Source: Spirochaetota bacterium
GTDB lineage: Bacteria > Spirochaetota > UBA4802 > UBA5550
Assembly (NCBI GenBank): GCA_963664815.2
Contig: CAXXHB010000003.1
Location: forward strand, 1,376,001-1,440,000
Reading direction: 5' to 3'
DNA length: 64,000 bases
Positions 1,995 to 54,447 of the stretch are shown piece after piece. Positions within the stretch are counted from its first letter, which is position 1. Each line of letters starts with the position of its first letter. Made by a program: the position numbers and the translations under genes. Under the pieces are notes generated by a model. It saw nothing but the letters and a program-made list of their open reading frames with translations, had not been told where the DNA came from and searched no databases.

Positions 1995-2021
1995 ACGATA
2001 TATGACTACACATAGTGGGGG

Positions 2022-2091
2022 TGCCAATGGACAGGTATAAATACTATTCGTATAAGCAGTGAGTAATGATGCCTGTAAATTTCAACACACA
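2022..2091 (+). repeat. intergenic repeat C, copy 1 (second copy 9413-9481)
   Basis: TGCCAATGGACAGGTATAAATAC..TTCGTAT..GCA..GAGTAATGATGCCTGTAAATT..CAACACACA occurs twice, each upstream of a B-type end. Confidence 0.85.
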
Positions 2092-2110
2092 TAAAAAAGC
2101 CGGCCAACCA

Positions 2111-2157
2111 GAATAGTATCTCAATCGGAGAAGATTGATTAAGATACTATTCTTAAC
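2111..2157 (+). repeat. hairpin repeat B, copy 1, abutting the cassette start GTT
   Basis: GAATAGTATCT-CAATC-GGAGAA-GATTG-ATTA-AGATACTATTC then TTAAC|GTT. Confidence 0.85.
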
Positions 2158-2266
2158 GTTATCTGCAATTCCCCCCGACTTGTGCTTGATAACTTTTTGT
2201 TTTTATTCATTATTAAAATATAAGAAAACTTCTTGACTACTAACCATATAATGATTACTTTGATTT

Positions 2267-2530
2267 ATGTACAATATAATCATTAAAAAAAGCATAATGA
2301 AAAATGTCCTGAAGATGCCGAAAGATATTCAATTTCATTTTGAATCTCTTGTTAATGATTTAAGAGAAAAAGGACCAGTTAGAAAAGAATGGCCGAACTT
2401 TAGCAGGTTAGGGAAAAATGAATACCATTGCCACTTATCACATAAATGGGTCGCATGTTGGTATTATGAAAATGATTCAGTAGTTATAGAGGTATATTAT
2501 GCAGGCAGTCGTGAAAACGCCCCGTATTGA
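2267..2530 (+). CDS. RelE/HigB-superfamily toxin
   Basis: 87 aa basic protein with WPNFSRL..YHCHL..WVACW...YAGSRENAPY, upstream of and overlapping an HTH antitoxin. Confidence 0.7.
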   Translation: MYNIIIKKSIMKNVLKMPKDIQFHFESLVNDLREKGPVRKEWPNFSRLGKNEYHCHLSHKWVACWYYENDSVVIEVYYAGSRENAPY

Positions 2531-2867
2531 AATAAACATTAAAGGTGATATTCCGCAGAAGATCATCACTTTATTGAAAGAAGAGTACGGAAAGAAAGTT
2601 CATTTAACAAAAGATGAAGACGATGAATATGTGGATATCTTCGAAACTGATTGGTATAAAAAAATCAGTGCAGAAAAAACTCCGGGCGACAATATGAAGA
2701 TTTACAGAAAGATTCATAAGTTAACTCAGAAAAAACTTGGTGAAATGCTTGGAGAAATTCCGGCGCAACACATTTCAAACATGGAAAACGGATCAAGACC
2801 AATTAGTAAAATTACAGCTAAGAAATTAGCAAAAATATTTGATGTATCAGTAGAACGGTTTATATAA
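2499..2867 (+). CDS. HigA-like XRE HTH antitoxin
   Basis: C-terminal HTH LTQKKLGEMLG..QHISNMENGSRPI. Confidence 0.8.
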   Translation: MQAVVKTPRIEINIKGDIPQKIITLLKEEYGKKVHLTKDEDDEYVDIFETDWYKKISAEKTPGDNMKIYRKIHKLTQKKLGEMLGEIPAQHISNMENGSRPISKITAKKLAKIFDVSVERFI

Positions 2868-2893
2868 TCAAACCGAACGGCGGGGGGAACAGC

Positions 2894-3019
2894 AGATAAC
2901 TTATAGAAGTCTTAACGTAGCTGCCCCAAAAAAACCGCTGGTCTTTATCAGCGATATAAAAATATTAAGCAGATAATTTTAATCTTCAGGCAGCAGCTAT
3001 GTTAAGACTTTTGTTGGAC
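2894..3019 (+). repeat. attC-like repeat A, copy 1
   Basis: AGATAAC TTATA GAAGTCTTAACGTAGCTGCC...AGCTATGTTAAGACTTTT GTTGGAC; the long arms are complementary. Confidence 0.8.
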
Positions 3020-3064
3020 AAAACCACTGACATCGGGCATTTATTATAAAACATGGAGTGAAAA

Positions 3065-3709
3065 ATGGATTGTTGCAAAAAAGTAATTCAATATTCATTG
3101 TTAAGCGGTTTTATTTCAGCTGTAATCTATCCATTGACTGATATTATAGCCGGGAATATGTATAGAGGATATAGCTTTAATGAGCAAGCTGTAAGTGAAT
3201 TATTCGCGATTAATTCACCCGTTGCTCCATTAGTCGTTTTTCTTTTCTCAATATCGAGTGTTTTTTTAATTCTCTTTTCTGCAAGTGTCTTCATGTTTTC
3301 AAAGAATAAAAAAATTATGCGTTTTTTAGCCCTGATGTTATCAGGAAATGCAATCAATAGTCTGATTTTATGGAATTTCTTTCCAATGCATATGCGCAAT
3401 GTTCAGCCTGCATTTACTGATAAAATGCATGCAATTCTGGCAATAAATCCCTTTGTACTCATCAGTATCATCATCGGAGTTTTTATGTATAAAAACTGGT
3501 TCCGTTATTATTCTCTTTTAACCATATTGATATTATTCATTCCGGCATTTTTATCTTTTTCATATATCCCACTGTTATTATCACATCAGCCAACACCATG
3601 GATGGGGTTCACTGAACGTGTATCTCAGTATGGTCATTTGTCATGGCTCGCGGTGTTATCAATTATGTTATTCAATAAAAACAGAGCATTTCAGAAGGGT
3701 AGCCTTTAA
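3065..3709 (+). CDS. DUF998-like membrane protein, copy 1
   Basis: GYSFNEQAVSELFA, FPMHMR, MHAIL and GFTER motifs; several TM segments. Confidence 0.75.
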   Translation: MDCCKKVIQYSLLSGFISAVIYPLTDIIAGNMYRGYSFNEQAVSELFAINSPVAPLVVFLFSISSVFLILFSASVFMFSKNKKIMRFLALMLSGNAINSLILWNFFPMHMRNVQPAFTDKMHAILAINPFVLISIIIGVFMYKNWFRYYSLLTILILFIPAFLSFSYIPLLLSHQPTPWMGFTERVSQYGHLSWLAVLSIMLFNKNRAFQKGSL

Positions 3710-4108
3710 AAATTCTGATACTGTTCTTTTTCAGGCTCTATAGAGATGGGGCAGATTCAGACACCCGATGAAAAATTCTTTATGGCTTAAAAACCGATGC
3801 TTTCAAACACATATGAAAAAGAGACTTAAACTTTCTGTTCTAATGATGAAATTCTTATATCTGCAGGACAAATTAAAATTGTACGGCACAGAATGATAAT
3901 TTTTGACAGGAACCCATTTTTAAAAGAAGATACTGATTATTTCTGCTATAAAAAACTGGAATTAAAACAGCTAACAGCCGCTGGTTGTATAGAGAGCTTA
4001 AGACGGCTTGAGCCGTATTAAAGGCGACCGGAGGAAGTGCCTGTGGTAAAACTTTCACGCACGGTTCTTATGGGGGAAAGGGGGTGTAAACTCCATGACC
4101 TGCCAGAC
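3710..4108 (+). mobile_element. group II intron 3' remnant (maturase C-terminus, DV, DVI)
   Basis: Decayed frame SDTVLFQAL*RWGRFRHPMK..WLKNR and KIVRHRMIIFDRNPFLKEDTDYF; DV GAGCCGTAT...ACTTTCACGCACGGTTC (4010-4067); DVI ending GACCTGCCAGAC. Confidence 0.85.
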
Positions 4109-4256
4109 TGTCGCTTCGAGGCTATAACTTTGGGACTGCTGTCCATGGCGGCGTTAATTGGGTAGAGTATATCATGAAATTTGACTATTAATGAAATGCT
4201 TACTATCATATAAACGAGGTGTAATTTTTTAAGTATTATGAATAAAACCATTCGGG

Positions 4257-5297
4257 ATGAAGGAGCAAGATGGGGAAATGATAAAAAAATCAATCATAGC
4301 GACGCTCATCGCAGGTTTGCTTTTCATTATTCTGACAGAGGATAATTTTGGCCATATGAATACGGTAAAACGTGCTTTTCTGATTTTTACAGCATTTATT
4401 GTACTTTGTACCTGCATTTACTGCTTTGTCCTTGCATTCTTTTCCTTCATCAGCGGGTGGAGAGTTCTGAGTCTCAAGTTTCCTTTACCGGAAACAGTCC
4501 AATCCGACTCTCTCCTTTTTTATACCCAAAGCGTTGGGATGGGTTATATGTACTACTCCATGAGTGTGGATATCAGGTTCATCGACGCAGGCCTGATTTT
4601 TTCCCAGTCCCGCTTTTTTACTTTTATGCACAGGCCATTCATTGTGCCATATGAAAAAGTCGAACATCCCGGGAAAATTAATTCATCCGATTCGGATCTT
4701 GAATTCACAGTTGAAGGGATCAAAATGAGGATGTCAGGTGAATCAGCGGAAGCCCTTATTAAGAAAAAAATGAATCCATCTCTCCCAATCGTTTCACTCA
4801 GGAGTGGTAAGGATGATCCCGACAGATCTATGAAAAAGGGGGGAGAGAAGTTCATCACGAGAAAATGCCGGTTCGAAGAACTTCAGCCCGGTTTCATTTC
4901 ACAGGTACGTGATTTTATTAAACATAAAAAAATAGACGGCCTTCAAGATGCGATGGTGCATTGCTGCGAAACAGCATACATGAAAAAGGGATTTTTCCTC
5001 GGGACAGTCTATCACCAGTACACGGACCTGCTATTAACCGGTGAGTGGTTTTTCTGGGGAGTCTGCGACGGCGATGGCTGCTCATCCGGGTGCGCAAAAA
5101 TAAAGGATATTACCGAAATCCATGATCCAGAGGAAATCCTCACCTTGAACCCGCTGGAAATCAGAGGTATCAATATAACCGGCTTCCACTACGACGAATC
5201 AGATCTCACCTCATGGCGCTTAAATGTGGGAAATGATGAGGAGAGCACATCATTCAGGAGGAAATTCGCGGAATTGGTCAGTAAATATCGCAAATAG
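4257..5297 (+). CDS. hypothetical membrane-anchored protein
   Basis: 346-aa ORF with two N-terminal TM helices; start may be 4278. Confidence 0.6.
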   Translation: MKEQDGEMIKKSIIATLIAGLLFIILTEDNFGHMNTVKRAFLIFTAFIVLCTCIYCFVLAFFSFISGWRVLSLKFPLPETVQSDSLLFYTQSVGMGYMYYSMSVDIRFIDAGLIFSQSRFFTFMHRPFIVPYEKVEHPGKINSSDSDLEFTVEGIKMRMSGESAEALIKKKMNPSLPIVSLRSGKDDPDRSMKKGGEKFITRKCRFEELQPGFISQVRDFIKHKKIDGLQDAMVHCCETAYMKKGFFLGTVYHQYTDLLLTGEWFFWGVCDGDGCSSGCAKIKDITEIHDPEEILTLNPLEIRGINITGFHYDESDLTSWRLNVGNDEESTSFRRKFAELVSKYRK

Positions 5298-5339
5298 TTA
5301 AGTTCACTTGATCAGGCCTATTTGTGCTAAACGAACGGA

Positions 5340-5522
5340 GGCCTTCGAGGTAAGAAGACGATACAGAAAATAGCCCAAATGTATGGAGTACACCCGAATC
5401 AGGTAACGCTTTGGAAAAAGCAGCTGATAGATAATGCAACATCAGCCTTTGATAAAGATGTCAAAGACAAAGACCTGGAAGAATCAGAAAAGAAGCAGGA
5501 TGAGCTATACAGCCAGGTAGGA
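5340..5522 (+). pseudogene. IS3-family OrfA (HTH) fragment
   Basis: LRGKKTIQKIAQMYGVHPNQVTLWKKQLIDNA...ELYSQVG. Confidence 0.8.
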
Positions 5523-5538
5523 GCTTCCCGTTTAACCT

Positions 5539-5585
5539 GAATAGTATCTCAATCGGAGAAGATTGATTAAGGCACTACCCTTAAC
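5539..5585 (+). repeat. hairpin repeat B, copy 2
   Basis: GAATAGTATCTCAATCGGAGAAGATTGATTAAGGCACTACCCTTAAC. Confidence 0.85.
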
Positions 5586-5668
5586 TTTATATGCAATGCC
5601 CGTCATTCATGAAAAATGCTTGACTTTTCATGAAACTTGATTATGTTACCCATAATGGAGGTGATATT

Positions 5669-5947
5669 ATGGCAATCCTGCAGGTTCGCGATATTGATGA
5701 TAGATTGTATGCTTCACTAAAAGCAATTGCAAAAAGTCAAAACAGATCTATCAGCCAGGAAGTAATTTCTATTATAGAAAAGTATCTTTCAAATCCGTCG
5801 GTTTATAAAAGTAATCCAACAAGAGAATTCATAGCTCTTTCCGGTGCATGGGATGACGATCGAGGTGCAGATGAAATAATTGATTCGATAAAAAAATCTC
5901 GTAAAAACTCTGAAAGATTTAAAAAAGAAAATGTCCTATTTGATTGA
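5669..5947 (+). CDS. FitA-like ribbon-helix-helix antitoxin
   Basis: MAILQVRDIDDRLYASLKAIAKSQNRSISQEV; GGAGG RBS. Confidence 0.8.
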   Translation: MAILQVRDIDDRLYASLKAIAKSQNRSISQEVISIIEKYLSNPSVYKSNPTREFIALSGAWDDDRGADEIIDSIKKSRKNSERFKKENVLFD

Positions 5948-6332
5948 TACAAATATAATAATTTATAGCATCAAAGGTGATTCTGTTGTTCATGAACATT
6001 TATTGAAAAATGAAAACATACCAAAATCAATATCCGTAGTCACATATGGAGAGTTGCTGTTTGGTGCTAAAAAATCTCAAAATTATGAAAAGAATTTAGC
6101 TATAGTTTATCGGATAAAAGAATTATTTCCTGTCATTGATATAGATAAAGCCATTATTGAAACCTTCAGTGAATTAAAAGCAAATCTGCAAAAATCAGGT
6201 TACCCAATAGATGATTTTGATTTGTTGATAGCGTCAACAGCTCTGACCATGAATTCAATTTTAGTCACAAATAATGAAAAACATTTTAATAGAATAAAAG
6301 GATTAAAAATAGAAAACTGGTCAAAGAAATAA
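5931..6332 (+). CDS. vapC: VapC PIN-domain toxin
   Basis: YLIDTNII, ELLFGA, DFDLLIA and LVTNNEKHF PIN motifs. Confidence 0.9.
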   Translation: MSYLIDTNIIIYSIKGDSVVHEHLLKNENIPKSISVVTYGELLFGAKKSQNYEKNLAIVYRIKELFPVIDIDKAIIETFSELKANLQKSGYPIDDFDLLIASTALTMNSILVTNNEKHFNRIKGLKIENWSKK

Positions 6333-6628
6333 ATAACGGGCACTGCATATAATGCTTACAACGCTGCGCTCGCGAAAAAATTCGTCTGGCCCTGCGGCAC
6401 ATTAAGGCAAAAGGCCGCCGCAAAGTCGGTAAGCAATGCGTTTAACAAAACCGCCTGCCTGATGAATGCCGGAGACATGGGCAACATGCTTTAATTTATT
6501 AGTTCTCAAATATTTCGAATTAAATCATTGGAGTGTAATATGATAAATATTGCTTACCTCAGTTAAATACTTGCTATTTCTGTTACTGGTATTAGTTTTT
6601 TAGCCATATGAGTTTTTGAAATACTATT

Positions 6629-6677
6629 CACAATGGGGTTAAAAATTAATACTCTTTTTTGCCCCATTGATTTTTTC
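6629..6677 (+). terminator. intrinsic terminator-like hairpin
   Basis: CAATGGGG...CCCCATTG followed by a T-run. Confidence 0.45.
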
Positions 6678-6729
6678 TTTAAAAAATTTGCCTAACTAAA
6701 GTAATTATAAAAATCAAGGAGCAAGTATC

Positions 6730-7500
6730 ATGAAAAAATTTTCAACAATATCATTCATATCTTTTTTTATTATACTTCTATTTACAATTTCCGGTTACAG
6801 CAGAGAAAAACAAATTAAATCCATAAGCCTTTATAAAGGTGGAGTAAAAGTAATTTTAACTGAAAATGATCAAGGAACAAATAAAGGGGAACTTTTTTAT
6901 CATTTATTCTACACAGTTGATTGGGTTAAAGTTAATAGTGAGTTAATTGCATTTACTGTGACTTATTCAAATTGTAATGAAACAAAAACTAAAGAAATAA
7001 ACTGTAAGAAAGATGAATGTTTTGATAAAGACTTTTTTTATGCCACTTGTAAACAGCAACCAAATTTTAGTGCTATTGAAATGATGAATTCAAGTTCAGA
7101 CGCGGGAACCATTCATGGAGGTAAAGCTGGGGATTGGTCCAAAGCAAAAAAGAAAACATGTATTGAGATAGATGAAACCGTTCGAGAAGAAATATTAAAT
7201 TGTATTGGAAAAGATGAATATGGTAATGTTCCAGTAGATAATTTTCCAAATAGAAAAATATTCAATTGCGGTAATTATGTTATAATAAATATTTATAAGA
7301 GGGATCGTGCTGGATCCGCAGATAATCCTAGACAGGAAGTTTTAGAATTTAGAAAAAAAATAAATAAAACATGTGAAGATGAGGCAAGAGAAATACTGAT
7401 AAACTCATATAATTTATCGAAAGATCAGTGTGGTACAACTATTAGAGCAACTTATTCAGAGGATGGTGACGTTTGGATATTGTATGCTATGCCAAAATAA
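6730..7500 (+). CDS. hypothetical secreted Cys-rich protein
   Basis: Signal peptide, many Cys, RBS AAGGAG. Confidence 0.6.
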   Translation: MKKFSTISFISFFIILLFTISGYSREKQIKSISLYKGGVKVILTENDQGTNKGELFYHLFYTVDWVKVNSELIAFTVTYSNCNETKTKEINCKKDECFDKDFFYATCKQQPNFSAIEMMNSSSDAGTIHGGKAGDWSKAKKKTCIEIDETVREEILNCIGKDEYGNVPVDNFPNRKIFNCGNYVIINIYKRDRAGSADNPRQEVLEFRKKINKTCEDEAREILINSYNLSKDQCGTTIRATYSEDGDVWILYAMPK

Positions 7501-7737
7501 TAATTATTAGGGTATACGGTGAGCACAAAATTTAATTTAGACAGGACATTATTGAGGAATTACTGTTAAGGAAGATGCTTTAAGTACCTTCTGATAATTA
7601 AACTTTCTATAGTATATTGTCGTTTTCAATATAGATAAAAAGAGAAGAAGAATTTGATTGTTAGTATAACAAATATGTCGTGAACTTTTCGGCGTCTTTG
7701 CCTCAAAGTTTAAAACATTTAGTAATGTGGCTGCATC

Positions 7738-7861
7738 GCATAATTTATGGAAGCATTAACGTAGCCGTCTAAAAACCGCTGGTCTTTATCAGCGGTATAA
7801 AAATATTAGAATAGATAATTTTAATCTTCAGGCAGCAGCTATGTTAAGACTTTTGTTGGAC
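7738..7861 (+). repeat. attC-like repeat A, copy 2
   Basis: GCATAAT TTATG GAAGCATTAACGTAGC...GCTATGTTAAGACTTTTGTTGGAC. Confidence 0.8.
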
Positions 7862-7906
7862 AAAACCACTGACATCGGGCATTTATTATAAAACATGGAG
7901 TGAAAA

Positions 7907-8551
7907 ATGAATTGTTGCAAAAAAGTAATTCAATATTCATTGTTAAGCGGTTTTATTTCAGCTGTAATCTATCCATTGACTGATATTATAGCCGGGAATA
8001 TGTATAGAGGATATAGCTTTAATGAGCAAGCTGTAAGTGAATTATTCGCGATTAATTCACCCGTTGCCCCATTAGTCGTTTTTCTTTTCTCAATATCGAG
8101 TGTTTTTTTAATTCTCTTTTCTGCAAGTGTCTTCATGTTTTCAAAGAATATAAAAATTATGCGTTTTTTAGCCATGATGTTATCAGGAAATGCAATCAAT
8201 AGTCTGATTTTATGGAATTTCTTTCCAATGCATATGCGCAATGTTCAGCCTGAATTTACTGATAAAATGCATGCAATTTTGGCAATAAATCCCTTTGTAC
8301 TCATCAGTATCATCATCGGAGTTTTTATGTATAAAAACTGGTTCCGTTATTATTCTCTTTTAACCATATTGATATTATTCATTCCGGCATTTTTATCTTT
8401 TTCATATATCCCACTGTTATTATCACATCAGCCAACACCATGGATGGGGTTCACTGAACGTGTATCTCAGTATGGTCATTTGTCATGGCTCGCGGTGTTA
8501 TCAATTATGTTATTCAATAAAAACAGAGCATTTCAGAAGGGTAGCCTTTAA
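7907..8551 (+). CDS. DUF998-like membrane protein, copy 2
   Basis: Differs from 3065-3709 at only 4 of 214 aa. Confidence 0.75.
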   Translation: MNCCKKVIQYSLLSGFISAVIYPLTDIIAGNMYRGYSFNEQAVSELFAINSPVAPLVVFLFSISSVFLILFSASVFMFSKNIKIMRFLAMMLSGNAINSLILWNFFPMHMRNVQPEFTDKMHAILAINPFVLISIIIGVFMYKNWFRYYSLLTILILFIPAFLSFSYIPLLLSHQPTPWMGFTERVSQYGHLSWLAVLSIMLFNKNRAFQKGSL

Positions 8552-8745
8552 AAATTCTGATACTGTTCTTTTTCAAGCTCTATAGAGATGGGGCAGATTC
8601 AGACACCCGATGGAAAATTCTTTATGGCTTAAAAACCGGTACTTGAAAACGCACAGGAAACAGGGACTTAAACCTTTTGTTCTGATGATGAGATTCTTAT
8701 ATCTGCAGGACACGCTAAAATTATATGGTACAGAATTATCATATT
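8552..8745 (+). mobile_element. group II intron maturase fragment, copy 2
   Basis: Homologous to 3710-3900 with the same in-frame TAG; diverges after ~8635; no DV. Confidence 0.75.
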
Positions 8746-8928
8746 GCATTCCAAACATAACTTGGTAATTCCATGGAAAGTAACCATTCTAAAATGATAT
8801 AATTCAAATGAAATTATTTACTGTTAGAATATCAATCGCAGATTTCTATAATGAACATGGAATTAGCACTGTGTCTCTGGTTTTCCAGAGCATAGATTTC
8901 GAATTTATTAAATAATAATAGAGGTTTT

Positions 8929-9312
8929 ATGAATAATTTATCTATCATATTTTATATTACAACATTCGTAGTTATTATTATTAGCAGATTCTTGTATGAT
9001 ATTGAAATCAAAAAAATGACTGATGAACAAAAGCTTATATTATTAAAAGAATTTAAAATAATTCATTTAATACCTTTGTTTTTAATGCATCTTTTAATAA
9101 TAATAGCAATAAATATAAATTTAAAATTTATTAAATTATTATTCATTGTAATCCTGCTTGAAATTAGCTATTTAATTACTTATGAAAAGTTTAGATATGA
9201 AAGATTAAAAAAGAGCAGTTTTGATAATTCGCATATTAAGAAAAATATAATTTATTCTTCACTGAGTCTCGGTGCATTTATATTTATATTATTTGTATTT
9301 TATTTAATTTGA
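8929..9312 (+). CDS. hypothetical small membrane protein (cassette remnant)
   Basis: About four hydrophobic segments; followed by core site GCATAAC at 9336-9342. Confidence 0.55.
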   Translation: MNNLSIIFYITTFVVIIISRFLYDIEIKKMTDEQKLILLKEFKIIHLIPLFLMHLLIIIAININLKFIKLLFIVILLEISYLITYEKFRYERLKKSSFDNSHIKKNIIYSSLSLGAFIFILFVFYLI

Positions 9313-9398
9313 AAACATAATTGATAAATCACTACGCATAACGAGACTGTAGAGAAAGTATAAATTGATTTAAATTTAACAGTAGTTATGTGTTAATA

Positions 9399-9518
9399 TG
9401 TCCATTGGAGGCTGCCAATGGACAGGTATAAATACCATTCGTATGAGCATGGAGTAATGATGCCTGTAAATTCAACACACAGATACTTTCCGGGGCAATT
9501 GAACATACTCTTTTTAAC
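9399..9518 (+). repeat. repeat C copy 2 with palindrome and degenerate B end
   Basis: TGTCCATTGG-AGGCTG-CCAATGGACA palindrome, then the C segment, then ..ATACTCTTTTTAAC|GTT. Confidence 0.75.
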
Positions 9519-10030
9519 GTTATGCAAAAGCCTGAAAATTTTTTGAGGTAGTTAATGGAATCTTTTGAATTAAAAGGAAACAACGGTTTTATCAAATTTA
9601 CTATAATAGAATTACCCGAATTTCCGAATCGCACACATTTTACTGGTGGCTATGATTGTAAAATCAATATTGAAATCAAAGCTGGAATATTCACAGGAAA
9701 TGGTGAGTTATGGAGTTCTACTGGAGAACTATTTCAATTTTATTCATCATTGAAAAAATCTTATGAAACTCTTGAAGGTGAAATAAACTATTATAATTAT
9801 GAATCAAATATATCTATTCACTTAAATTTTGATTTCTCTGGTCATTGTATAATTACTGGCGAGTACTATAATTATTCTGATTCGGCGAATGTATTAAATT
9901 TCAGAATTGAAAGTGATCAATCATATATTAAAGAAAGTTTGTTTGAATTAGAAAAAATATCGAATAAATATGGCGGGATGCTAGGTGTAAAACAAAAATA
10001 AATGTATTAATTGTCAGGCTATTGCATAAC
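9519..10030 (+). mobile_element. gene cassette carrying WapI-like gene
   Basis: GTTATGCAAAAGCCTGAAAATT versus AATTGTCAGGCTATTGCATAAC (20/22 inverted match). Confidence 0.85.
9555..10001 (+). CDS. putative WapI-like immunity protein
   Basis: ELFQFYSSLKKSYETLEG..YE..GH...G...ESDQSYI pattern recalled for WapI-family proteins. Confidence 0.5.
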   Translation: MESFELKGNNGFIKFTIIELPEFPNRTHFTGGYDCKINIEIKAGIFTGNGELWSSTGELFQFYSSLKKSYETLEGEINYYNYESNISIHLNFDFSGHCIITGEYYNYSDSANVLNFRIESDQSYIKESLFELEKISNKYGGMLGVKQK

Positions 10031-10147
10031 TTATAGAAGTCATAAAGTAGCTGCCCAAAAGAATAGTTATCAATTACGGTGGTATATAAATATTATGCAG
10101 ATAGTTTTAAGTTTCAGACAACAGCAATGCTAAGACATTTGTTGGAC
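10024..10147 (+). repeat. attC-like repeat A, copy 3 (diverged)
   Basis: GCATAAC TTATAGAAGTCATAAAGTAGCTGCCC...GCTAAGACATTTGTTGGAC, followed by the same Y tail. Confidence 0.8.
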
Positions 10148-10227
10148 GAAACCACTGGCATCGGGCAGAACATACTTCGTTTTTAAGCTCATAACAATCA
10201 TGGGAATTTGAATCCTGTTTTCTACTG

Positions 10228-10269
10228 GTATCTCAATCAGTGAAGATTGACTGAGATACTCTTCTTAAC
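10228..10269 (+). repeat. hairpin repeat B, copy 3
   Basis: GTATCTCAATCAGTGAAGATTGACTGAGATACTCTTCTTAAC|GTT. Confidence 0.85.
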
Positions 10270-10378
10270 GTTATATGAAAGTGAGCCCCATTCAATAGTA
10301 CGCCAAAATCTTATCTCCGTATAAATATTTTGCTCGTGTTTCTATGTTGGATTCCAGCTTTTCATCCAAATTTTCAGT

Positions 10379-10411
10379 TGCAATTAATTATAAAGATTAT
10401 TACTTTGTAAT
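10379..10411 (+). promoter_or_regulatory. TA promoter with operator palindrome
   Basis: TTGCAA -35-like hexamer; ATTAC-TTT-GTAAT palindrome at 10399-10411. Confidence 0.5.
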
Positions 10412-10431
10412 TACATAAAAGAGGTGCTGTT

Positions 10432-10677
10432 ATGATAGCAAAAATAATTCAAATAGGAAATTCAAAAGGAATACGGATTCCAAATCAGGTTTTAAAAGAA
10501 ATGAATATTGAAAATCAGATAGAACTTATAATAAGTGATAAAAAAGATGAAATAATCCTTAAACCAATTCATAAAGCCCGGGAAGGGTGGAATGAATCAT
10601 TTAAGAAAATGAGAACTGCTTATGATGATAAACTTATCATTGATGATTCATTAGATTTGAATGATTGGGAATGGTGA
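10432..10677 (+). CDS. mazE: AbrB/MazE antitoxin
   Basis: KIIQIGNSKGIRIP; acidic C-terminus ..DWEW. Confidence 0.85.
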   Translation: MIAKIIQIGNSKGIRIPNQVLKEMNIENQIELIISDKKDEIILKPIHKAREGWNESFKKMRTAYDDKLIIDDSLDLNDWEW

Positions 10678-10680
10678 GAA

Positions 10681-11004
10681 ATGGAGATTTTACAATATAG
10701 CATATATCTGGTGAATCTAGATCCGACAATAGGGCATGAAATTAAAAAAACCCGTCCATGCCTTGTTATATCACCAGATGAAATGAATCTGAATATTCAA
10801 ACAGTTATAATTGCTCCAATGACAACTAAGTCTCATAAATATCCAACCAGAGTTCAGGTGACTGTTCAGGATAAAAAAGGATGGATAGTGTTAGATCAAA
10901 TAAGAACAATAGATAATCAGCGGCTCATCAAAAAAATCGGTAAAATTAATAATGAAACAATAAAACAAGTCAAGGGTGTCATCAAAGAGATGCTTGTTGA
11001 TTAA
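10681..11004 (+). CDS. mazF: PemK/MazF toxin
   Basis: VNLDPTIGHEIKKTRPCLVIS, APMTT and DQIRTID motifs. Confidence 0.9.
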   Translation: MEILQYSIYLVNLDPTIGHEIKKTRPCLVISPDEMNLNIQTVIIAPMTTKSHKYPTRVQVTVQDKKGWIVLDQIRTIDNQRLIKKIGKINNETIKQVKGVIKEMLVD

Positions 11005-11057
11005 CTTCACGTAGAAATATATTATTCAATTTGTTGTTCGCATTGGGCTTCAACTTC

Positions 11058-11119
11058 ATATAACTTATAGAAATCTTAATGCAGCAGCCCAAAAAAACCG
11101 CTGGTCTTTATCAGCGGTA
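11058..11119 (+). repeat. attC-like repeat A, copy 4 (5' half only)
   Basis: ATATAAC TTATAGAAATCTTAATGCAGCAGCCC...TCAGCGGTA, cut off by an IS21-like end. Confidence 0.8.
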
Positions 11120-11170
11120 TGTCAACACCAATTAGAACTTGCCGCTTTTCACCGATATAATTTTGCCGGT
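11120..11170 (+). mobile_element. IS21-family-like terminal repeat, copy 2
   Basis: TGTCAACACCAATTAGAACTTGCCGCTTTTCACCGATATAATTTTGCCGG. Confidence 0.65.
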
Positions 11171-11178
11171 ATATAAAA

Positions 11179-11850
11179 TTACCATAAATAAGGTAAAAGT
11201 CTATACCTGGTTTTATAAATATAATCAGAATAACCTTTGAGTTCATTCTTCAGGGTTTTATCCTCCAGGTATGTTCTTACTATATTAAGAATTATTAACA
11301 TACCTGCAGGTATTATACTCCATAAAGAACCAAATAACAATGGGAATCCAAGTGTCTGGATAATTATTCCCATATAGCCGGGATGTCTTACAGATTTATA
11401 CAGGCCGGTATCACAGACCACATGTCCTCTGTCTTTCTGAATCCTGACAGTACTTGAAAAAAATCTGTTCTGCTTTTGCGCGACCAGAAATAAAAGTTGT
11501 CCTGTCACAGTGAGCAATATGCCCGCCACTGACAGGCTCCAATGAAAAACAGGGGACCATTGGAAGCGGCCGGAATCGAGTCCGGCTGTAATATACATGC
11601 ATATTGTAGCTGAGAATGATAATAGTAAAACGACCTTATCCCAGCTTTTAATTCCTTCTCCCGGTTTTGAACGTTCTTTCATCAGATCGGGTTCCGGCTT
11701 CAAAGCCGTGTAGTTTAAAATCAGCATAACAAGTCCTAAAGATGCATAAATCAGTCCCTGCATATATTTCAGGCGGCCTGCACTGACAAAAATAAGAGTA
11801 AAAAATATTAAAGTACCAACAACCTGCTTAATAAAAAGATTTGCCTTCAT
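11179..11850 (-). CDS. isoprenylcysteine carboxyl methyltransferase (ICMT/PEMT) family protein
   Basis: NRFFSSTVRIQKDRGH, GLYKSVRHPGY, RTYLEDKTL and YRLLPYLW motifs. Confidence 0.85.
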   Translation of the reverse strand: MKANLFIKQVVGTLIFFTLIFVSAGRLKYMQGLIYASLGLVMLILNYTALKPEPDLMKERSKPGEGIKSWDKVVLLLSFSATICMYITAGLDSGRFQWSPVFHWSLSVAGILLTVTGQLLFLVAQKQNRFFSSTVRIQKDRGHVVCDTGLYKSVRHPGYMGIIIQTLGFPLLFGSLWSIIPAGMLIILNIVRTYLEDKTLKNELKGYSDYIYKTRYRLLPYLW

Positions 11851-13420: not shown

Positions 13421-13656
13421 CATCGGGATTTTTTAATAACATGTAGTAATAATCCGGTGATTTTACCGGGGAGAATAAACCCGTAAATAATTATTTCTTC
13501 AGTCGTCGTACAGACCTTGAACAGCGATCTCATACAAGGTCTCAAAACCACGGACATACCGCTATGTGCCAAAATAATCCATTACTTCTGAAATCATTTA
13601 AATTTGATTGACTTTCATGCCGAATGTATTACTGTTTGTATTACGGGGGCTTTAAA

Positions 13657-18499: not shown

Positions 18500-18809
18500 T
18501 TTATCAGCTCTTCAATAATTGCAGTATATTCAATAATATTCAAAGTTTCAAATATTTATTCAAATTTCTACATACGAATTATTCTTGAAAATATAAATCC
18601 AGTTGATTAAAACGCCATTAATATTGTGTCGGGCTGTTGTTCCGGGGGTTATGTCGGGCAGACAGGACGTCAGCATTCCGGCAGACTCAGTTGCCGCCTG
18701 CCGGCATATAACAGGCAGTACAATGTTTGTATTGATATTTCAGGAGAAGTGATGATGTAAAAAATCCAGCCATTATGAATATAATTCTGATTATGAATAG
18801 AGGGTTTAT

Positions 18810-19892: not shown

Positions 19893-19902
19893 GAAACATG
19901 GA

Positions 19903-20006
19903 CTGGTTGTATAATAAGTTTCAGACGGCCCGAGTTGTACGATGGGAGACTTTCACGTATGGTTCTTATGCGGGACGGGGAGTGAATGCTCCATGACCTG
20001 CCGGAC
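19903..20006 (+). mobile_element. group II intron DV-DVI remnant
   Basis: CTGGTTGTATA..AGACGGCCC GAGTTGTACGATGGGAGACTTTCACGTATGGTTC TTATG...GACCTGCCGGAC, homologous to 3981-4108. Confidence 0.8.
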
Positions 20007-20222
20007 TTGCATATTTATTATTTAAGGAGGAATTACAAAATGCATGATAATCCTGACTATAATTCAGCTCTTGAGTTATTTAAAAAACAAAATATTTTTT
20101 TAGTTTGATGGAATCAATAAAATAGAATAAAATGGCTTATCTTATCCGGGAATAATCTGTTTTATTTAAGGCACAATGGAAAAGGCGGAATGTGATTTGA
20201 AAATGAATAAAGGCTGGTAAAC

Positions 20223-24310: not shown

Positions 24311-24325
24311 AAATCCGGCCAGCCT

Positions 24326-24372
24326 GAAGAGTATCTGCACCGGAGAAAACTGTTTAAGATACCCTTCTTGAG
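24326..24372 (+). repeat. hairpin repeat B, copy 4 (diverged)
   Basis: Preceded by CCGGCCAGCCT (cf. CCGGCCAACCA at 2100); GAAGAGTATCT...CGGAGAA...AGATACCCTTC. Confidence 0.75.
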
Positions 24373-25205
24373 GGTATGCAGAAATGCAGTTTAAAATGCA
24401 ATAACCTTTTATATCGGAGGAATATGACACAGATTAAAACAATCGGAACTTTTAAGGTAATACTGCTTTATGCAATTACTTCATCGCTGATATATTCAGG
24501 ATTATATTTTGTAATTCCTGTTTTATTAAAATCAGGACTTTTATTTTTTCCCTCATATTTAATTACATTTTATCCTGCTTTTATTTTAATGTTTATTCTG
24601 ACTTTTATACTTTTAAAACGGGATGGATACAGTTTACGGTATAATGTTTTATCAGAAAGGCTGAGATTAAAAAAACTGACAAAGAAAGATCTTTGGATAA
24701 CATTACTCCTTTTCATTATATGCATTGGCACATATTTTTTATTATCATTTTCCGGTTCTGTACTTGCAAATATCCCTGTGTTCGCACCGCCCGATTTTTT
24801 CCCCCCTGAGATAAACCCGTTAAAACATAAACTTGTTAATGGAACATTTATGAATTATCCTCTGCTCGGTAACTGGTGGATTCCATTAATATATTTTATC
24901 TGCTGGATTTTTAATATTCTGGGTGAAGAACTGTTATGGAGGGGATATCTCATTCCGCGAATGGAATTGAAATGGAAAAATAATGCCTGGATTGTCAATG
25001 GCCTGCTCTGGTGGGTATGGCATTTTTACTGGAAGTGGAATCTGCTGATTCTTTTACCGACAAATTTATTAATTCCATTCGTTGTTCAAAAAAGAAAAAA
25101 TACATGGATAGGGATAATTGTTCACGGAACTATGAATTTTCTGCCTGTTATTTATTTAATTCTTGGAGTAACCGGTGTTGTAAAATAAACAGCATTCAGC
25201 ATAGC
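24373..25205 (+). mobile_element. decayed gene cassette carrying CPBP protease
   Basis: GGTATGCAGAAATGCAGTTTA versus TAAACAGCATTCAGCATAGC (about 17/21 inverted match). Confidence 0.6.
24424..25188 (+). CDS. CPBP (CAAX/Abi) intramembrane protease
   Basis: GEELLWRGY, WxxWH and HGTMN motifs; GGAGG RBS. Confidence 0.88.
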   Translation: MTQIKTIGTFKVILLYAITSSLIYSGLYFVIPVLLKSGLLFFPSYLITFYPAFILMFILTFILLKRDGYSLRYNVLSERLRLKKLTKKDLWITLLLFIICIGTYFLLSFSGSVLANIPVFAPPDFFPPEINPLKHKLVNGTFMNYPLLGNWWIPLIYFICWIFNILGEELLWRGYLIPRMELKWKNNAWIVNGLLWWVWHFYWKWNLLILLPTNLLIPFVVQKRKNTWIGIIVHGTMNFLPVIYLILGVTGVVK

Positions 25206-36883: not shown

Positions 36884-36924
36884 AATAATGACATATATGA
36901 ATAATAATATGACTTTATTTAAAA

Positions 36925-37007
36925 CCGTTTCCCTCCGCCGGTATTAACCGGATCAGGTAATCAGGGTATAATCTCAGCGCACGAATTAAACGCGGCACCC
37001 CTAACGG
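36925..37007 (-). ncRNA. TPP riboswitch
   Basis: Minus strand CCGTTAGGGGTGC...GCTGAGATTATACCC...ACCTGATCCGGTTAATACCGGCGGAGGGAAACGG. Confidence 0.95.
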
Positions 37008-37259
37008 AAAATTTAAACTTTTAAAACTTTAAACGGCCAAACCTGTATTGTCAAATATTTTAATACGGAAATTTGATTATGCTGAATATTTTACATATAC
37101 CACAGCGAAGAATTTAAAAACATTCTGATAATATATATTAAGTATTATATTTTATGGATTAAAAATTCTTAAAAAAATATACTTTTTAAAAGTCTGTATA
37201 TGTATTTTAGCGGGGAGAGAAAGTCCTGATATTAAATTAGCTGATAATAATATGAAGTA

Positions 37260-39218: not shown

Positions 39219-41969
39219 ATGAAACCTTCCATTTTTCGGCCCTGTTTAGTGTCCTTAAGTGTTCTGTTGTTTGCACTGCTTCTGGTCAGCGTTACACCTG
39301 TAAATGCTGCTGATGGAAAAAAATGGGATGGGAAGACATATCCGTTCAAACTTCTTGATCCATCGAAAGCAAACAGCGTGAGTAATCCCTTTATTATCGA
39401 TACCGCCGGCAAGCTTGCGTATTTTTCATGGCTGGCTTCCAGAGGGAATGATATGGATTTCGATATGGCTGCATACGGCAGAGAAAACGGACTCAAAGGT
39501 CTGCAGGCCGCATTTAAAGATAATTTTGTGAAGCTTACTGCGGATCTTGATATGAATGGTTCCAGGTTTGAATTAACCGCCATTATGGGTATGTCTGTAA
39601 ATTTTGACGGTGGCGGGCATGTGATTGATAACCTGTGCATCAGCGATAAAAAAACCAAAACGATTATCGACGCGACAGAGGGTACTGTTGAAATATATCT
39701 GGGGCTTTTCCAGGATGCTGAATCAATAAGAAATCTCGGTATCGGCAAAGGATCAACGATCACCTTCTATGGCGGATCCAGCTATACAAATTCAGTCTTT
39801 GCGGCCGGTGTTGCTGCAGGTGCTAACCTTGTAGATAACTGTTTCAGCGATGCCACAGTGAAGATAAACGGAGAGGGAGATGCCCTCGTTGCGGGGGTTG
39901 TGGCTCAATGTGCATATGTAACCAACTCATATAACCGCGGTTCCGTTATAATTATTGGCAAAGTTATAAATTCAAGGGCAAAAAACAAACAGGGAAGAAT
40001 AGAACCGGGTGAGTTGAGGGTTGGCGGGGTGTGTGCACGGTTTGACAAAAAAATCTCGGGCTGTTACAATACCGGCTCTATTACCGTTAAGTCTTCCGGT
40101 GCAGTTGTTGAAATCGGCGGAGTTTCCGCAAATCAGAACGGTGGTGTGTGTACGGATCTCTATAATTCAGGAAGTATACATCTGGCTGCAGATGGCCATA
40201 TCAAAAACGCCGGTATTGGCGGTGTGCTTGGTGTCGGAACTCCTGCTTTGGCGCTCCCATGGAAGCCGATCAAATACGTTGATTCGGGATATATATATAA
40301 TAAAGGGAATATCGATGTTACGGTACAGAGCGGCGGTCAGATATTTGCGGGCGGAATATGCGGTTCTAATAAACCGGGATTCAACGGTATATGGCTGGGG
40401 TTCGCGGGCGGAATCAGCGGATGTATCAATACATATAATACAGGCTCAATATCTGTTGCTTCAAAAGAAAAGGTTGATGCTCTTGGCGCGGGTGGAATAG
40501 CCGGTTATGGAACCATGGTAATTAACAGCTACAATACCGGCAGCATTAAAGGAATCTCCGGAGCCGGAACAACACTGTACATCGGCGGCCTTGGAGGCAG
40601 TGCTGTGTATGTTCAGAACTGCTACAATATCGGCGCGGTGAGCGGAAAAGGTCCCGGTGATAATTTTACCGGGGGAATTGTGGGAAATGCCGTTGCAACA
40701 TGGGGGGAAACAGATAAAACACTGATAACCGCACTGAACGGCTTCTGGCTTAAACAGGCCAAAGAGGGTGGTGTCAACAGCGATATTAAATATGGCAAGG
40801 GTTCCTATTATTACATGACATTGAGCGATCTGAAGAAAAAGACCGGGGAAACTGAATTCCGCAAGCTTCTTGATGCTGTTGACAGGGAGAAGGAAGACCC
40901 TGACACCATGCATGAAGCTTCATACGGAGCAGTCTATTCATTCGAGAGCCCATCCTCATCCGTTATGACCAGAACAGATGACGGGCCGGGGAAAAGGGGG
41001 AATCTTAACGGCACGCTGCTTAACAATCTTAATAATATGGTAGAGGACAAAATAAACCGTTTATACCGCAGATGGGTTATTGACGGATCAAACGGCGGAT
41101 ATCCGGTGTTATCGTCCAAACCGACTATTTACAGCAGCACTCCTGAAAAGCCCGATGCCTCTGTCGCCAAACAGATCGCCGGAGGGTACCTGGGGGAGAA
41201 TAAGCAATGGACAGACAATATCACGCTGAACGCTGACGGCACTTTTAAACGGGCCAACGGCGGCGATGGCGGGAACTGGCTGTTCAACGGGAAGAGGCTG
41301 ATACTCCTGTGGTCAAAGTGGGAGCCTGAGATTCTTGAACAGAAATCCGAGGGGGTATTCTCTTCGAATGTTTACGATTTCAAACTGACACGCTCCGGCT
41401 CTTCGAAACTGGAAGATAAACCGGATGCAGCAACAGCAGGTAAGCTTGCGGGAGTATATTCTGCCGAGCACAGGTACTGGACCGATAATATTATAATCAA
41501 CGGCGACGGCACATTCAAAAAAGCCTCAGACGGCGATAACGGTACATGGTCTTTTGACGGGAAGAAGCTGATGCTCAAGTGGTCAAAGTGGGCACCGGAA
41601 ATTCTTGAGCTGAAGTCTGATGGTTCATTCTCCTGTAAGATCTACAGGTTTAAGCTGACGCGCTCCGCCGCATCCAGGCCTGATAATTCCGCAAAAGATA
41701 CTCTTACCCCGGCCGAAAAACCGGATGCAAAGATAGCAAAACTGGTAGCAGGAGTGTATTATGCCCAGCACAGGGACTGGACCAGCACTGTCACAATTAA
41801 TGCTGACGGCACCTTCAGGCGTGACAGCAACGGAGATGGAGGTACATGGACAAGCTCTGATGGGAGGACACTTGTTCTCAAATGGTACAAGTCGGCACCA
41901 GAGACCCTGCAGAAATCGGCGACCGGGTTCTATTGTCCTGCATATAAGTTCACTCTCAGGCAACGCTGA
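39219..41969 (+). CDS. large secreted protein with GLUG-like repeats and three C-terminal ~90-aa repeats
   Basis: Signal peptide; repeated YNxGxI..GGxxG units; triple KPDA..AG.Y...WT...NADGTF...GD.G.W...W.PE.L. Confidence 0.75.
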   Translation: MKPSIFRPCLVSLSVLLFALLLVSVTPVNAADGKKWDGKTYPFKLLDPSKANSVSNPFIIDTAGKLAYFSWLASRGNDMDFDMAAYGRENGLKGLQAAFKDNFVKLTADLDMNGSRFELTAIMGMSVNFDGGGHVIDNLCISDKKTKTIIDATEGTVEIYLGLFQDAESIRNLGIGKGSTITFYGGSSYTNSVFAAGVAAGANLVDNCFSDATVKINGEGDALVAGVVAQCAYVTNSYNRGSVIIIGKVINSRAKNKQGRIEPGELRVGGVCARFDKKISGCYNTGSITVKSSGAVVEIGGVSANQNGGVCTDLYNSGSIHLAADGHIKNAGIGGVLGVGTPALALPWKPIKYVDSGYIYNKGNIDVTVQSGGQIFAGGICGSNKPGFNGIWLGFAGGISGCINTYNTGSISVASKEKVDALGAGGIAGYGTMVINSYNTGSIKGISGAGTTLYIGGLGGSAVYVQNCYNIGAVSGKGPGDNFTGGIVGNAVATWGETDKTLITALNGFWLKQAKEGGVNSDIKYGKGSYYYMTLSDLKKKTGETEFRKLLDAVDREKEDPDTMHEASYGAVYSFESPSSSVMTRTDDGPGKRGNLNGTLLNNLNNMVEDKINRLYRRWVIDGSNGGYPVLSSKPTIYSSTPEKPDASVAKQIAGGYLGENKQWTDNITLNADGTFKRANGGDGGNWLFNGKRLILLWSKWEPEILEQKSEGVFSSNVYDFKLTRSGSSKLEDKPDAATAGKLAGVYSAEHRYWTDNIIINGDGTFKKASDGDNGTWSFDGKKLMLKWSKWAPEILELKSDGSFSCKIYRFKLTRSAASRPDNSAKDTLTPAEKPDAKIAKLVAGVYYAQHRDWTSTVTINADGTFRRDSNGDGGTWTSSDGRTLVLKWYKSAPETLQKSATGFYCPAYKFTLRQR

Positions 41970-54288: not shown

Positions 54289-54362
54289 TAGCGGGGGAGG
54301 GACTCGAACCCCCCACACCACGGATATGAGCCGTGTGCTCTAACCAACTGAGCTACCCCGCC
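54289..54362 (-). tRNA. tRNA-Met(CAT), elongator (Ile2 not excluded)
   Basis: GGCGGGGTAGCTCAGTTGGTTAGAGCACACGG-CTCATAT-CCGTG...GTTCGAGTCCC; CCA not encoded. Confidence 0.9.
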
Positions 54363-54374
54363 GGTTTTTTTTAT

Positions 54375-54447
54375 TAGCGCGGGTAGGACTTGAACCTACG
54401 ACCTTTGGGTTATGAGCCCAACGAGCTGCCAACTGCTCCACCGCGCG
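54375..54447 (-). tRNA. initiator tRNA-fMet(CAT)
   Basis: Unpaired C1:U72, three consecutive G-C pairs in the anticodon stem (GGG-CTCATAA-CCC); CCA not encoded. Confidence 0.93.

Follow-up and report, generated by a model that had tools for sequence, protein, structure and literature searches.

Leftover ends of two IS91-family elements probably frame the gene cassettes of an integron-like array in a spirochaetal genome

We analysed a stretch of 64 000 nucleotides (hereafter the window) from a Spirochaetota bacterium (assembly GCA_963664815.2, contig CAXXHB010000003.1), in which unrelated small genes, the cargoes, are enclosed by a constant frame: a repeat termed B on the left, and a repeat termed A followed by a tail termed Y on the right. 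The window corresponds to C3:1376001–1440000 of a 5.2 Mb genome in three contigs with 38% G+C; C3 coordinates are those of the same contig's numbering. We show that the cargoes are gene cassettes of an integron-like array, and we consider it probable, with appreciable room for doubt, that the frame is built from end fragments which two related IS91-family elements (types 1 and 2) left at the cassette borders: known elements, with a new twist.

A first-pass annotation of the window, made from sequence alone, had recognized unrelated cargoes in a repeated frame and taken them for cassette-like units. This holds, and the repeats lie far beyond chance: at up to two mismatches, a 23-nt A pattern has 27 matches in the genome and the same pattern reversed has none. 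Under the looser limit of six mismatches in 28 positions, A has 32 matches genome-wide, one of them the opposite arm of a neighbouring copy; those in the window lie at 2888–2933, 7732–7777 (67%), 10018–10063 (76%) and 11052–11097 (83%). B has 12 copies genome-wide (up to eight mismatches in 50), and the copies first placed at 2111, 5539, 10228 and 24326, with a degenerate one at 9481, were all located. The 15-nt core of Y (up to two mismatches) has 27 matches across the genome, of which 25 lie directly past the second arm of an A hairpin, with no reverse copy; in the window it is found at 3013, 7855 and 10141. Pfam supported the cargo names proposed for WapI, MazE/PemK and the HTH_3 antitoxin, but has none for the 87-aa partner of the last. 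A fourth B-flanked cargo, beyond the three first described, encodes a FitA-like RHH protein and a PIN protein (5630–6332).

What B is can be read from the type 1 element, whose transposase gene is intact once in the genome (C3:3695389–3696642), with 3′ remnants detected by tblastn at eight other places. In the intact copy (L010, minus strand), a 287-aa tyrosine recombinase gene overlaps a 418-aa transposase gene, and the B end lies 255 nt past the transposase stop codon, followed by GTTA. The transposase scored 199.8 bits against Y2_Tnp (PF04986), 105.6 bits against Zn_Tnp_IS91 (PF14319) and 429.5 bits against NCBIfam transpos_IS91 (NF033538, cut-off 125). Just before B is an 18-nt motif that is the inverse (16/18) of the motif opening type 1 upstream of the recombinase gene, which has a small palindrome beside it. 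Half of the B copies (6/12) retain the type 1 3′ region upstream, and cargo follows directly 3′ of B in all 12. The description of B as a self-contained hairpin applies at 2106–2170 (z = −4.95), but folding is weak at 5534 (z = −1.6) and 10215 (z = −1.1). Its proposed ending, TTAAC followed by GTT, is seen in 11 of the 12 copies; the copy at 5539 has T for G, and the one at 24321, which falls outside the genome-wide mismatch limit, ends differently.

These counts leave scarcely any credence for one of the two models first proposed, in which B plus Y is a multi-copy attI-like target for single integration of A-type cassettes. The invariable position of B before cargo is what such a target would show, and the suggested check for an integrase gene next to B found one B 1.4 kb downstream of a recombinase gene; the transposase gene, however, stands between the two, and B in that intact copy is the neighbour of an IS91-family transposase. 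Neither Y nor A comes next after B in any of the 12 copies, so that there is no empty B–Y junction among them, Y is upstream of B wherever the two are joined, and Y is tied to A (25/27 matches) rather than to B.

A is the 5′ arm of a hairpin of approximately 112 nt, with Y directly past the 3′ arm. The claim that A is followed by Y was therefore correct in order for the copies at 2894, 7738 and 10024 but not in adjacency, as the second hairpin arm lies between them; the copy at 11058, thought to be complete with Y, is truncated after about 60 nt and lacks Y. Folded as DNA, the hairpin at 2901–3012 reaches −21.1 kcal/mol (z = −4.3), a value matched by none of 200 shuffles, and its loop holds a small covarying hairpin (2936–2953). 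Across 38 aligned copies from this genome, relatives and metagenomes, the A arms and the Y core are conserved while the loop varies in sequence and length; changes on both sides are seen at only two of 18 pairs in the arms, and AAC precedes A in nearly all copies. Rfam gave no match at A, B or Y. We rejected Y as a promoter by eye, the spacing being unsuitable. Repeats of 29 nt beside Y (C3:1367701–1367792 and C3:3686890–3686983, with 34–37 nt between copies) have a CRISPR-like look that we likewise rejected; since there are only two units, and the end of the ‘spacer’ resembles the normal continuation, we read them as a local tandem duplication.

The transposase of type 2 is 24% identical to that of type 1 and, in this genome, lies broken on the opposite strand past A–Y: there are eight remnants, seven of them within 1.1 kb of A–Y and none longer than 195 aa. 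In a comparison set of 58 foreign loci from other genomes and metagenomes, 15 carry a transposase 54–73% identical to the type 2 fragment at L009 8005–8592, with the 3′ end facing A–Y in all 15 at a distance of approximately 240–380 nt. The whole type 2 unit is present in loci L053 and L075, where a palindrome-bearing end motif, the recombinase, a 381-aa transposase (PF04986, 163–166 bits), Y and the A hairpin follow one another and GTTA comes next. Of the two elements, only type 1 occurs intact in the genome studied here, as a single copy.

Members of the IS91 family have unlike ends with subterminal palindromes, make no target duplication and place oriIS beside a target of four bases, CTTG, GTTC or GTCC, with T second (PMC13181058, in the part available to us). 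Because the layout here appears to agree with these rules, A with Y, and B, may be read as the oriIS-side ends of two sister elements, both abutting GTTA; two unlike, apparently palindromic ends can be read in them, and the hairpins are those with z = −4.95 (B) and −4.3 (A). A whole element would run from a palindrome-bearing end motif through a tyrosine recombinase gene, a Y2 (HUH) transposase gene and the inverted end motif to a terminal hairpin of 50–110 nt. On the plus strand, B would form the end hairpin of type 1; on the minus strand, A would do so for type 2, with Y as the inverted end motif of that element. The earlier remark that A is a non-canonical attC site falls away with A as part of an IS91-type end.

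The cargoes carry borders of their own. Each runs from GTT on the left to AAC on the right, in many cases within cassette-specific inverted repeats of 16–22 bp that match within a cargo and differ between cargoes, and both element ends abut the GTT/AAC cores of the four window cassettes (table 1). When alignment scores were compared with 100 shuffles per site, seven of the 32 A sites had a partner repeat in the cargo that scored above all shuffles, each aligned from the terminal base; at five further sites 2–4 of the shuffles reached the score, and the remaining 20 had no partner repeat. An ungapped scan of positions 1–26000 for GTT...AAC inverted repeats gave 20 pairs of at least 15/20, against 3–11 in shuffles, among which only the three pairs adjoining B and A stand out. 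No partner repeat above shuffles was found for the AAC-like bases just 5′ of B (2109, 5552 and 24320, some positions being slightly off). In the foreign loci, partner repeats likewise run from the terminal base, and various GC-rich hairpins, each stopping immediately short of GTT, form the left flanks. Native GC-rich spacers, of 84–105 nt, lie between ...AAC and GTT....

Since cassette borders read GTT... and ...AAC, a GTTA target is offered on the top strand at the left border and on the bottom strand at the right. Type 1 would have inserted at left borders and type 2, inverted, at right borders, both pointing at the cargo, and the original order between cassettes would then have been A, Y, type 2 body, native hairpin, type 1 body, B. 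Deletions could have removed the 5′ halves of both elements together with the native hairpin, leaving A–Y...B spacers that may have spread with the cassettes by duplication or recombination.

Such composite spacers exist. Short A–Y–B forms are found at C3:1373993 and C3:1375387 (approx. 175 nt, with Y joined directly to B) and at window positions 10031–10269 (approx. 240 nt), and there is a long A–Y...B form of approximately 1.3 kb, in which remnants of the type 2 and type 1 transposases lie on opposite strands; in one translated long spacer, the last 84 transposase residues are encoded on the forward strand. Conservation 3′ of A extends over as much as 1.2 kb, and the conserved DNA terminates in B. 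The same junctions recur between different cargoes, which argues that the composites spread after they had formed. The second model first proposed, that A–Y...B is one long branched recombination site (a giant attC) between cassettes, now partly fragmented, was right in that a contiguous spacer of 175 nt to 1.3 kb occurs with an identical junction beside different cargoes; the first bases of A can also, by reading, pair with the last bases of B across it. Yet the spacer is a composite of two element ends with deleted middles: its long form holds transposase remnants of two elements on opposite strands, A–Y and B are separate in most copies, and whole elements with A or B as their terminal part were found. 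Among the 58 foreign loci, where A–Y itself is common, no match to the short form extends into B. We therefore think a giant attC very unlikely. Inside the long A...B spacer, just 5′ of B, an IS110-family element is present in copies that are 98% identical (C3:3688069–3689154, i.e. L010 4069–5154, and C3:2542329–2543594).

All type 2 copies and all but one of the type 1 copies are broken, cassettes with their flanks are duplicated at 99–99.8% identity, and the short composite is found only in this genome. This is what would be expected if the frame had no present function and stemmed from a single old, rearranged region through a small number of local segmental duplications. However, the genome has the frame in at least seven places, around many different cargoes. 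Furthermore, in a sample of 60 other genomes of the family, the A pattern was found in six, and A–Y was found in 44 metagenome stretches, many with intact genes. Local duplication by itself is thus a highly improbable account. Named public records sharing the A repeat are few, and their labels are Spirochaetia or Leptospirales metagenome-assembled genomes.

Several points weigh against transposon ends as the explanation. The exact borders are uncertain by about 2 nt, as the two bases between the A hairpin and AAC vary among copies. Classic IS91 members have no recombinase gene, and inner inverted repeats are not described for them in the part of PMC13181058 available to us. The explanation offers no reason why type 1 keeps to the plus strand and type 2 to the minus strand without exception, and a cargo repeat is present at only 7 to 12 of the 32 A sites. 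The identical short A–Y–B junction between different cargoes implies that the composite has spread as a unit. No transposition or recombination event was seen: the window stretch is contained in five public sequencing runs from two studies, and in the four examined, contigs stop at the repeats and include no circle junction. Joints in these runs are few, with sides of 20–52 nt compatible with other copies of the repeats, so that excision is neither supported nor opposed.

A further objection is that the elements share the grammar of the cassettes, GTT...AAC plus a hairpin, such that A and B could equally be attC-type sites and the elements themselves cassettes. Sites of the attC type are imperfect hairpins of approximately 57–141 nt bounded by RYYYAAC and GTTRRRY. 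Here the recombinase–transposase units would be cassettes, the IntI-like recombinase would cut at the GTT cores and mobilize these units as well as ordinary cargo, and the Y2 transposase would be a passenger or helper. Each unit does run from GTT to AAC and has an 18-bp inverted repeat, beyond which come a hairpin of 50–110 nt and the next GTT, and ordinary cassettes with GC-rich hairpins show the same arrangement. The recombinases match Vibrio IntI4 (2a3v) best, their top two NCBIfam matches are recomb_XerA_Arch (‘site-specific tyrosine recombinase/integron integrase’) and integrase_gron, and a recombinase of this kind is found at array heads in two genera. Three observations nevertheless favour transposition, none of them decisive. 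Type 2 runs against the array without exception, an orientation that integration of a folded attC would not yield. The same end architecture occurs outside arrays on a Clostridium plasmid, beside GTTC, a classic IS91 target. Finally, the A arms keep their sequence from one host to another, as would a transposase binding site, with the few both-side changes noted above (2/18 pairs). On balance, we regard attC-type sites as unlikely, and leftover IS91-family ends as the probable explanation.

The array-head recombinase is encoded at C3:1972136–1973209 (L011 12136–13209, minus strand). In this locus, approximately 90 non-coding nucleotides separate the gene for the 357-aa IntI-like tyrosine recombinase from a cassette whose two ends match, and a GC-rich hairpin of 84 nt then leads to the next cassette; no element end motif was found upstream of the gene. 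Its best structure match is Vibrio IntI4 (E 1e-44), where the region that includes the IntI-specific domain spans 59 residues, compared with 17 in the spirochaetal protein, which also carries an 86-aa N-terminal extension. An IntI-type insertion is described as ‘not fully conserved’ in a subgroup of integron-like tyrosine recombinases in the part of PMC8138268 available to us. Homologues are 57% identical in genome G012 and 45% identical in G010, from another genus, where a cassette starts approximately 150 nt downstream and a GC-rich spacer lies 10 kb downstream. No canonical IntI was found in the genome studied here, the best match to TIGR02249 scoring 220.7 bits (cut-off 265) with model positions 180–234 missing. 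Canonical integrases are present in two of the 60 sampled family genomes, both without the GC-rich spacer and in two other genera (G013:C99:383–1321, 399.5 bits; G008:C43:963–1901, 387 bits, with one in-frame TGA); both cover the full model length. Conversely, G000, G004 and G010 (completeness 96–98%) hold both A and the GC-rich spacer and have no canonical IntI; these counts are low, and the genomes share ancestry.

This distribution, with A and the spacer in genomes without IntI and no spacer in the two genomes with it, raises the thought that the arrays are not ordinary integrons but a separate, IntI-independent cassette system, made up of an array-head recombinase without the extra domain, self-pairing cassette ends and IS91-type elements with a recombinase of their own. 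An excised cassette would form a long stem, closed at its tip by the spacer hairpin, and the IS91-type elements would be either parasites of the array or autonomous members of the cassettes' own family. We hold this doubtful but worth stating, and the cassette system itself may be the more novel part of what is described here.

Table 1. Positions within the window of the frame repeats, cassettes and neighbouring features
Feature	Position	Strand	Remarks
B	2110–2157	+	Putative terminal hairpin of type 1 (2110–2153) plus the last bases of its transposase-distal end; abuts the GTT of the cargo
B copies in window	2106–2173; 5534–5601; 10218–10285; 24321–24388		Repeat family: reference; 88%; 72%; 69%
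B copy	5539–5586	+	88%, weak hairpin; directly 3′ of an IS3-type orfA fragment (approx. 5330–5540)
Degenerate B	approx. 9481–9518	+	By reading
Old degenerate B	24321–24372	+	69%; precedes an Rce1-like gene
A hairpin	2901–3012	−	Approx. 112 nt, putative terminal hairpin of type 2; arms conserved, loop variable
Y	3013–3042	−	Putative inner inverted repeat at this end of type 2; counterpart of the recombinase-side end motif
Second A hairpin and Y	7738–7884	−	Degenerate 5′ arm
Truncated A	11065–11121	−	Stops after the inner small hairpin; the array stretch ends here
Composite spacer	10031–10269		A hairpin 10031–10140, Y 10141–10170, remnant 10171–10222, B 10223–10269
Cassette 1	2158–2900	+	87-aa protein (2267–2530) and HTH_3 antitoxin-like protein (2499–2867)
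Cassette 1 inverted repeats	2158–2177; 2881–2900		18/20 complementary; score 30, above all 100 shuffles
RHH–PIN cassette	5587–6352	+	FitA-like RHH antitoxin (5630–5947) and PIN toxin (5931–6332); own inverted repeats left and right (score 33; highest shuffle 23)
WapI cassette	9519–10030	+	WapI-like immunity protein (9555–10001); inverted repeats 18/20, score 34, above all shuffles
MazE–PemK cassette	10270–11064	+	MazE (10432–10677) and PemK/MazF (10681–11004); inverted repeats 16/20 with one indel, score reached by 2/100 shuffles
GC-rich hairpin spacer (M type)	6353–6439	+	Putative native attC-like site, past the RHH–PIN cassette
End-motif remnant	6440–6457	+	Resembles the recombinase-side end motif of type 1; directly past the spacer 6353–6439
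Spacer past preceding unit	1995–2109	+	Contains a 63-nt repeat (2019–2081) with a second copy at 9410–9472 (92%)
DUF998 gene	3065–3709	+	Directly past Y; duplicate at 7907–8551 (99%)
Multi-copy repeat	3701–4110	+	Terminal stretch (4008–4108) like group II intron domains V–VI

Other features of the array deserve brief mention. The GC-rich spacer at 6353–6439 folds no better than shuffles (z = −0.78). Two spacers without A have the 63-nt repeat ahead of B; it may represent a further kind of spacer. At the end of the truncated A, a 53-nt direct repeat (91%; 76–128 and 11118–11170) may mark a rearrangement that cut the array; its second copy adjoins the 3′ side of a gene for an ICMT-family methyltransferase (11179–11850, minus strand). 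Pieces of the type 1/type 2 3′ region at 13430–13559 and 18553–18772 (19 and 9 genome copies) precede an RHH–PIN pair and an SH3 protein gene, and the invaded array seems to reach to approximately 25 kb of the window. The group II intron-like stretch at 4008–4108 scored 27.9 bits against RF00029 (E 0.031), short of the gathering score (40), and its domain V is longer by 27 bases; it belongs to a neighbouring repeat and not to A or B. This repeat is also present at 19895–20009 and near C3:1373, 2544, 2565 and 1103 kb, and its end lies directly against the inner portion of a cassette left repeat in four or more places. Elsewhere on the contig (L009 4233–7494, C3:1364233–1367494), a 566-aa reverse transcriptase and a 522-aa family-A DNA polymerase-like protein form one cargo before an A site, past which are two cargoes encoding PD-(D/E)XK nucleases; the array looks like a store of defence genes. 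The window further contains a TPP riboswitch (36913–37012, 70.3 bits), two tRNA genes (54289–54447) and, at 41145–41817, three copies of a 103-nt repeat spaced by 270–300 nt in a G+C-rich stretch.

If the frame is indeed built from transposon ends at cassette borders, a puzzling constancy is explained, and a little-studied, recombinase-carrying subgroup of the IS91 family would live in cassette arrays with ends built like cassette borders. The function of the recombinase in these elements becomes a question that can be put concretely, and so does the possibility that cassettes are moved by a Y2 transposase or by an IntI-like recombinase lacking the extra domain. With cargo that includes toxin–antitoxin, immunity and nuclease genes and a reverse transcriptase with a polymerase, the arrays would be stores of defence genes in uncultured spirochaetes. 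In the literature we searched, we found no description of IS91-type elements at attC sites or of cassettes with inverted repeats of their own, which is no proof of their absence in print.

The elements resemble IS91, IS801 and IS1294 in their Y2/HUH transposase with a zinc-binding N-terminus and in having two unlike ends with subterminal palindromes, the transposase-distal (oriIS) end apparently lying beside a four-base target with T second and the other end starting with a similar four bases. They differ in the tyrosine recombinase gene upstream of the transposase gene, in the 15–18 bp inverted repeat just inside a longer terminal hairpin (50–110 nt), and in the apparent target, GTTA, which lies within a conserved cassette border. 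ISwz1, an IS91-family element of Weeksellaceae resistance islands, is similar in that pairs of truncated copies flank cargo, with circular forms seen, while its host and cargo are different (PMC11322121, in the part available). In the accessible parts of PMC4889954 and PMC8352920, CALIN and the chromosomal integrons of Spirochaetes share with these arrays small cassettes mostly in one orientation, toxin–antitoxin, immunity and nuclease cargo, apparent hairpin sites between cassettes (84–105 nt here) and GTT/AAC borders. In contrast to integrons, an IntI with the extra domain was not found in this genome, and the cassettes carry their own inverted repeats of 16–22 bp outside the cores. To our knowledge, attC sites have no such repeats. 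Specific insertion into the recombination sites of cassette arrays is known for other mobile elements, namely the IS1111-attC elements and group IIC-attC introns, which use other enzymes (a DEDD transposase and a reverse transcriptase, respectively) and have other ends. The closest counterparts are gene pairs on Clostridium estertheticum plasmids (NZ_CP077617.1 and others), with the same two genes in overlapping frames, transposases 44–47% identical, and a palindromic end motif, its inverted copy, a long hairpin and a target. In the one record read base by base, the end motif, a recombinase labelled ‘site-specific tyrosine recombinase/integron integrase’, an IS91 transposase (47% identical), the inverted motif and the long hairpin follow in order and are succeeded by GTTC, so that these elements differ from those of the spirochaete in their target and in lying outside cassette arrays.

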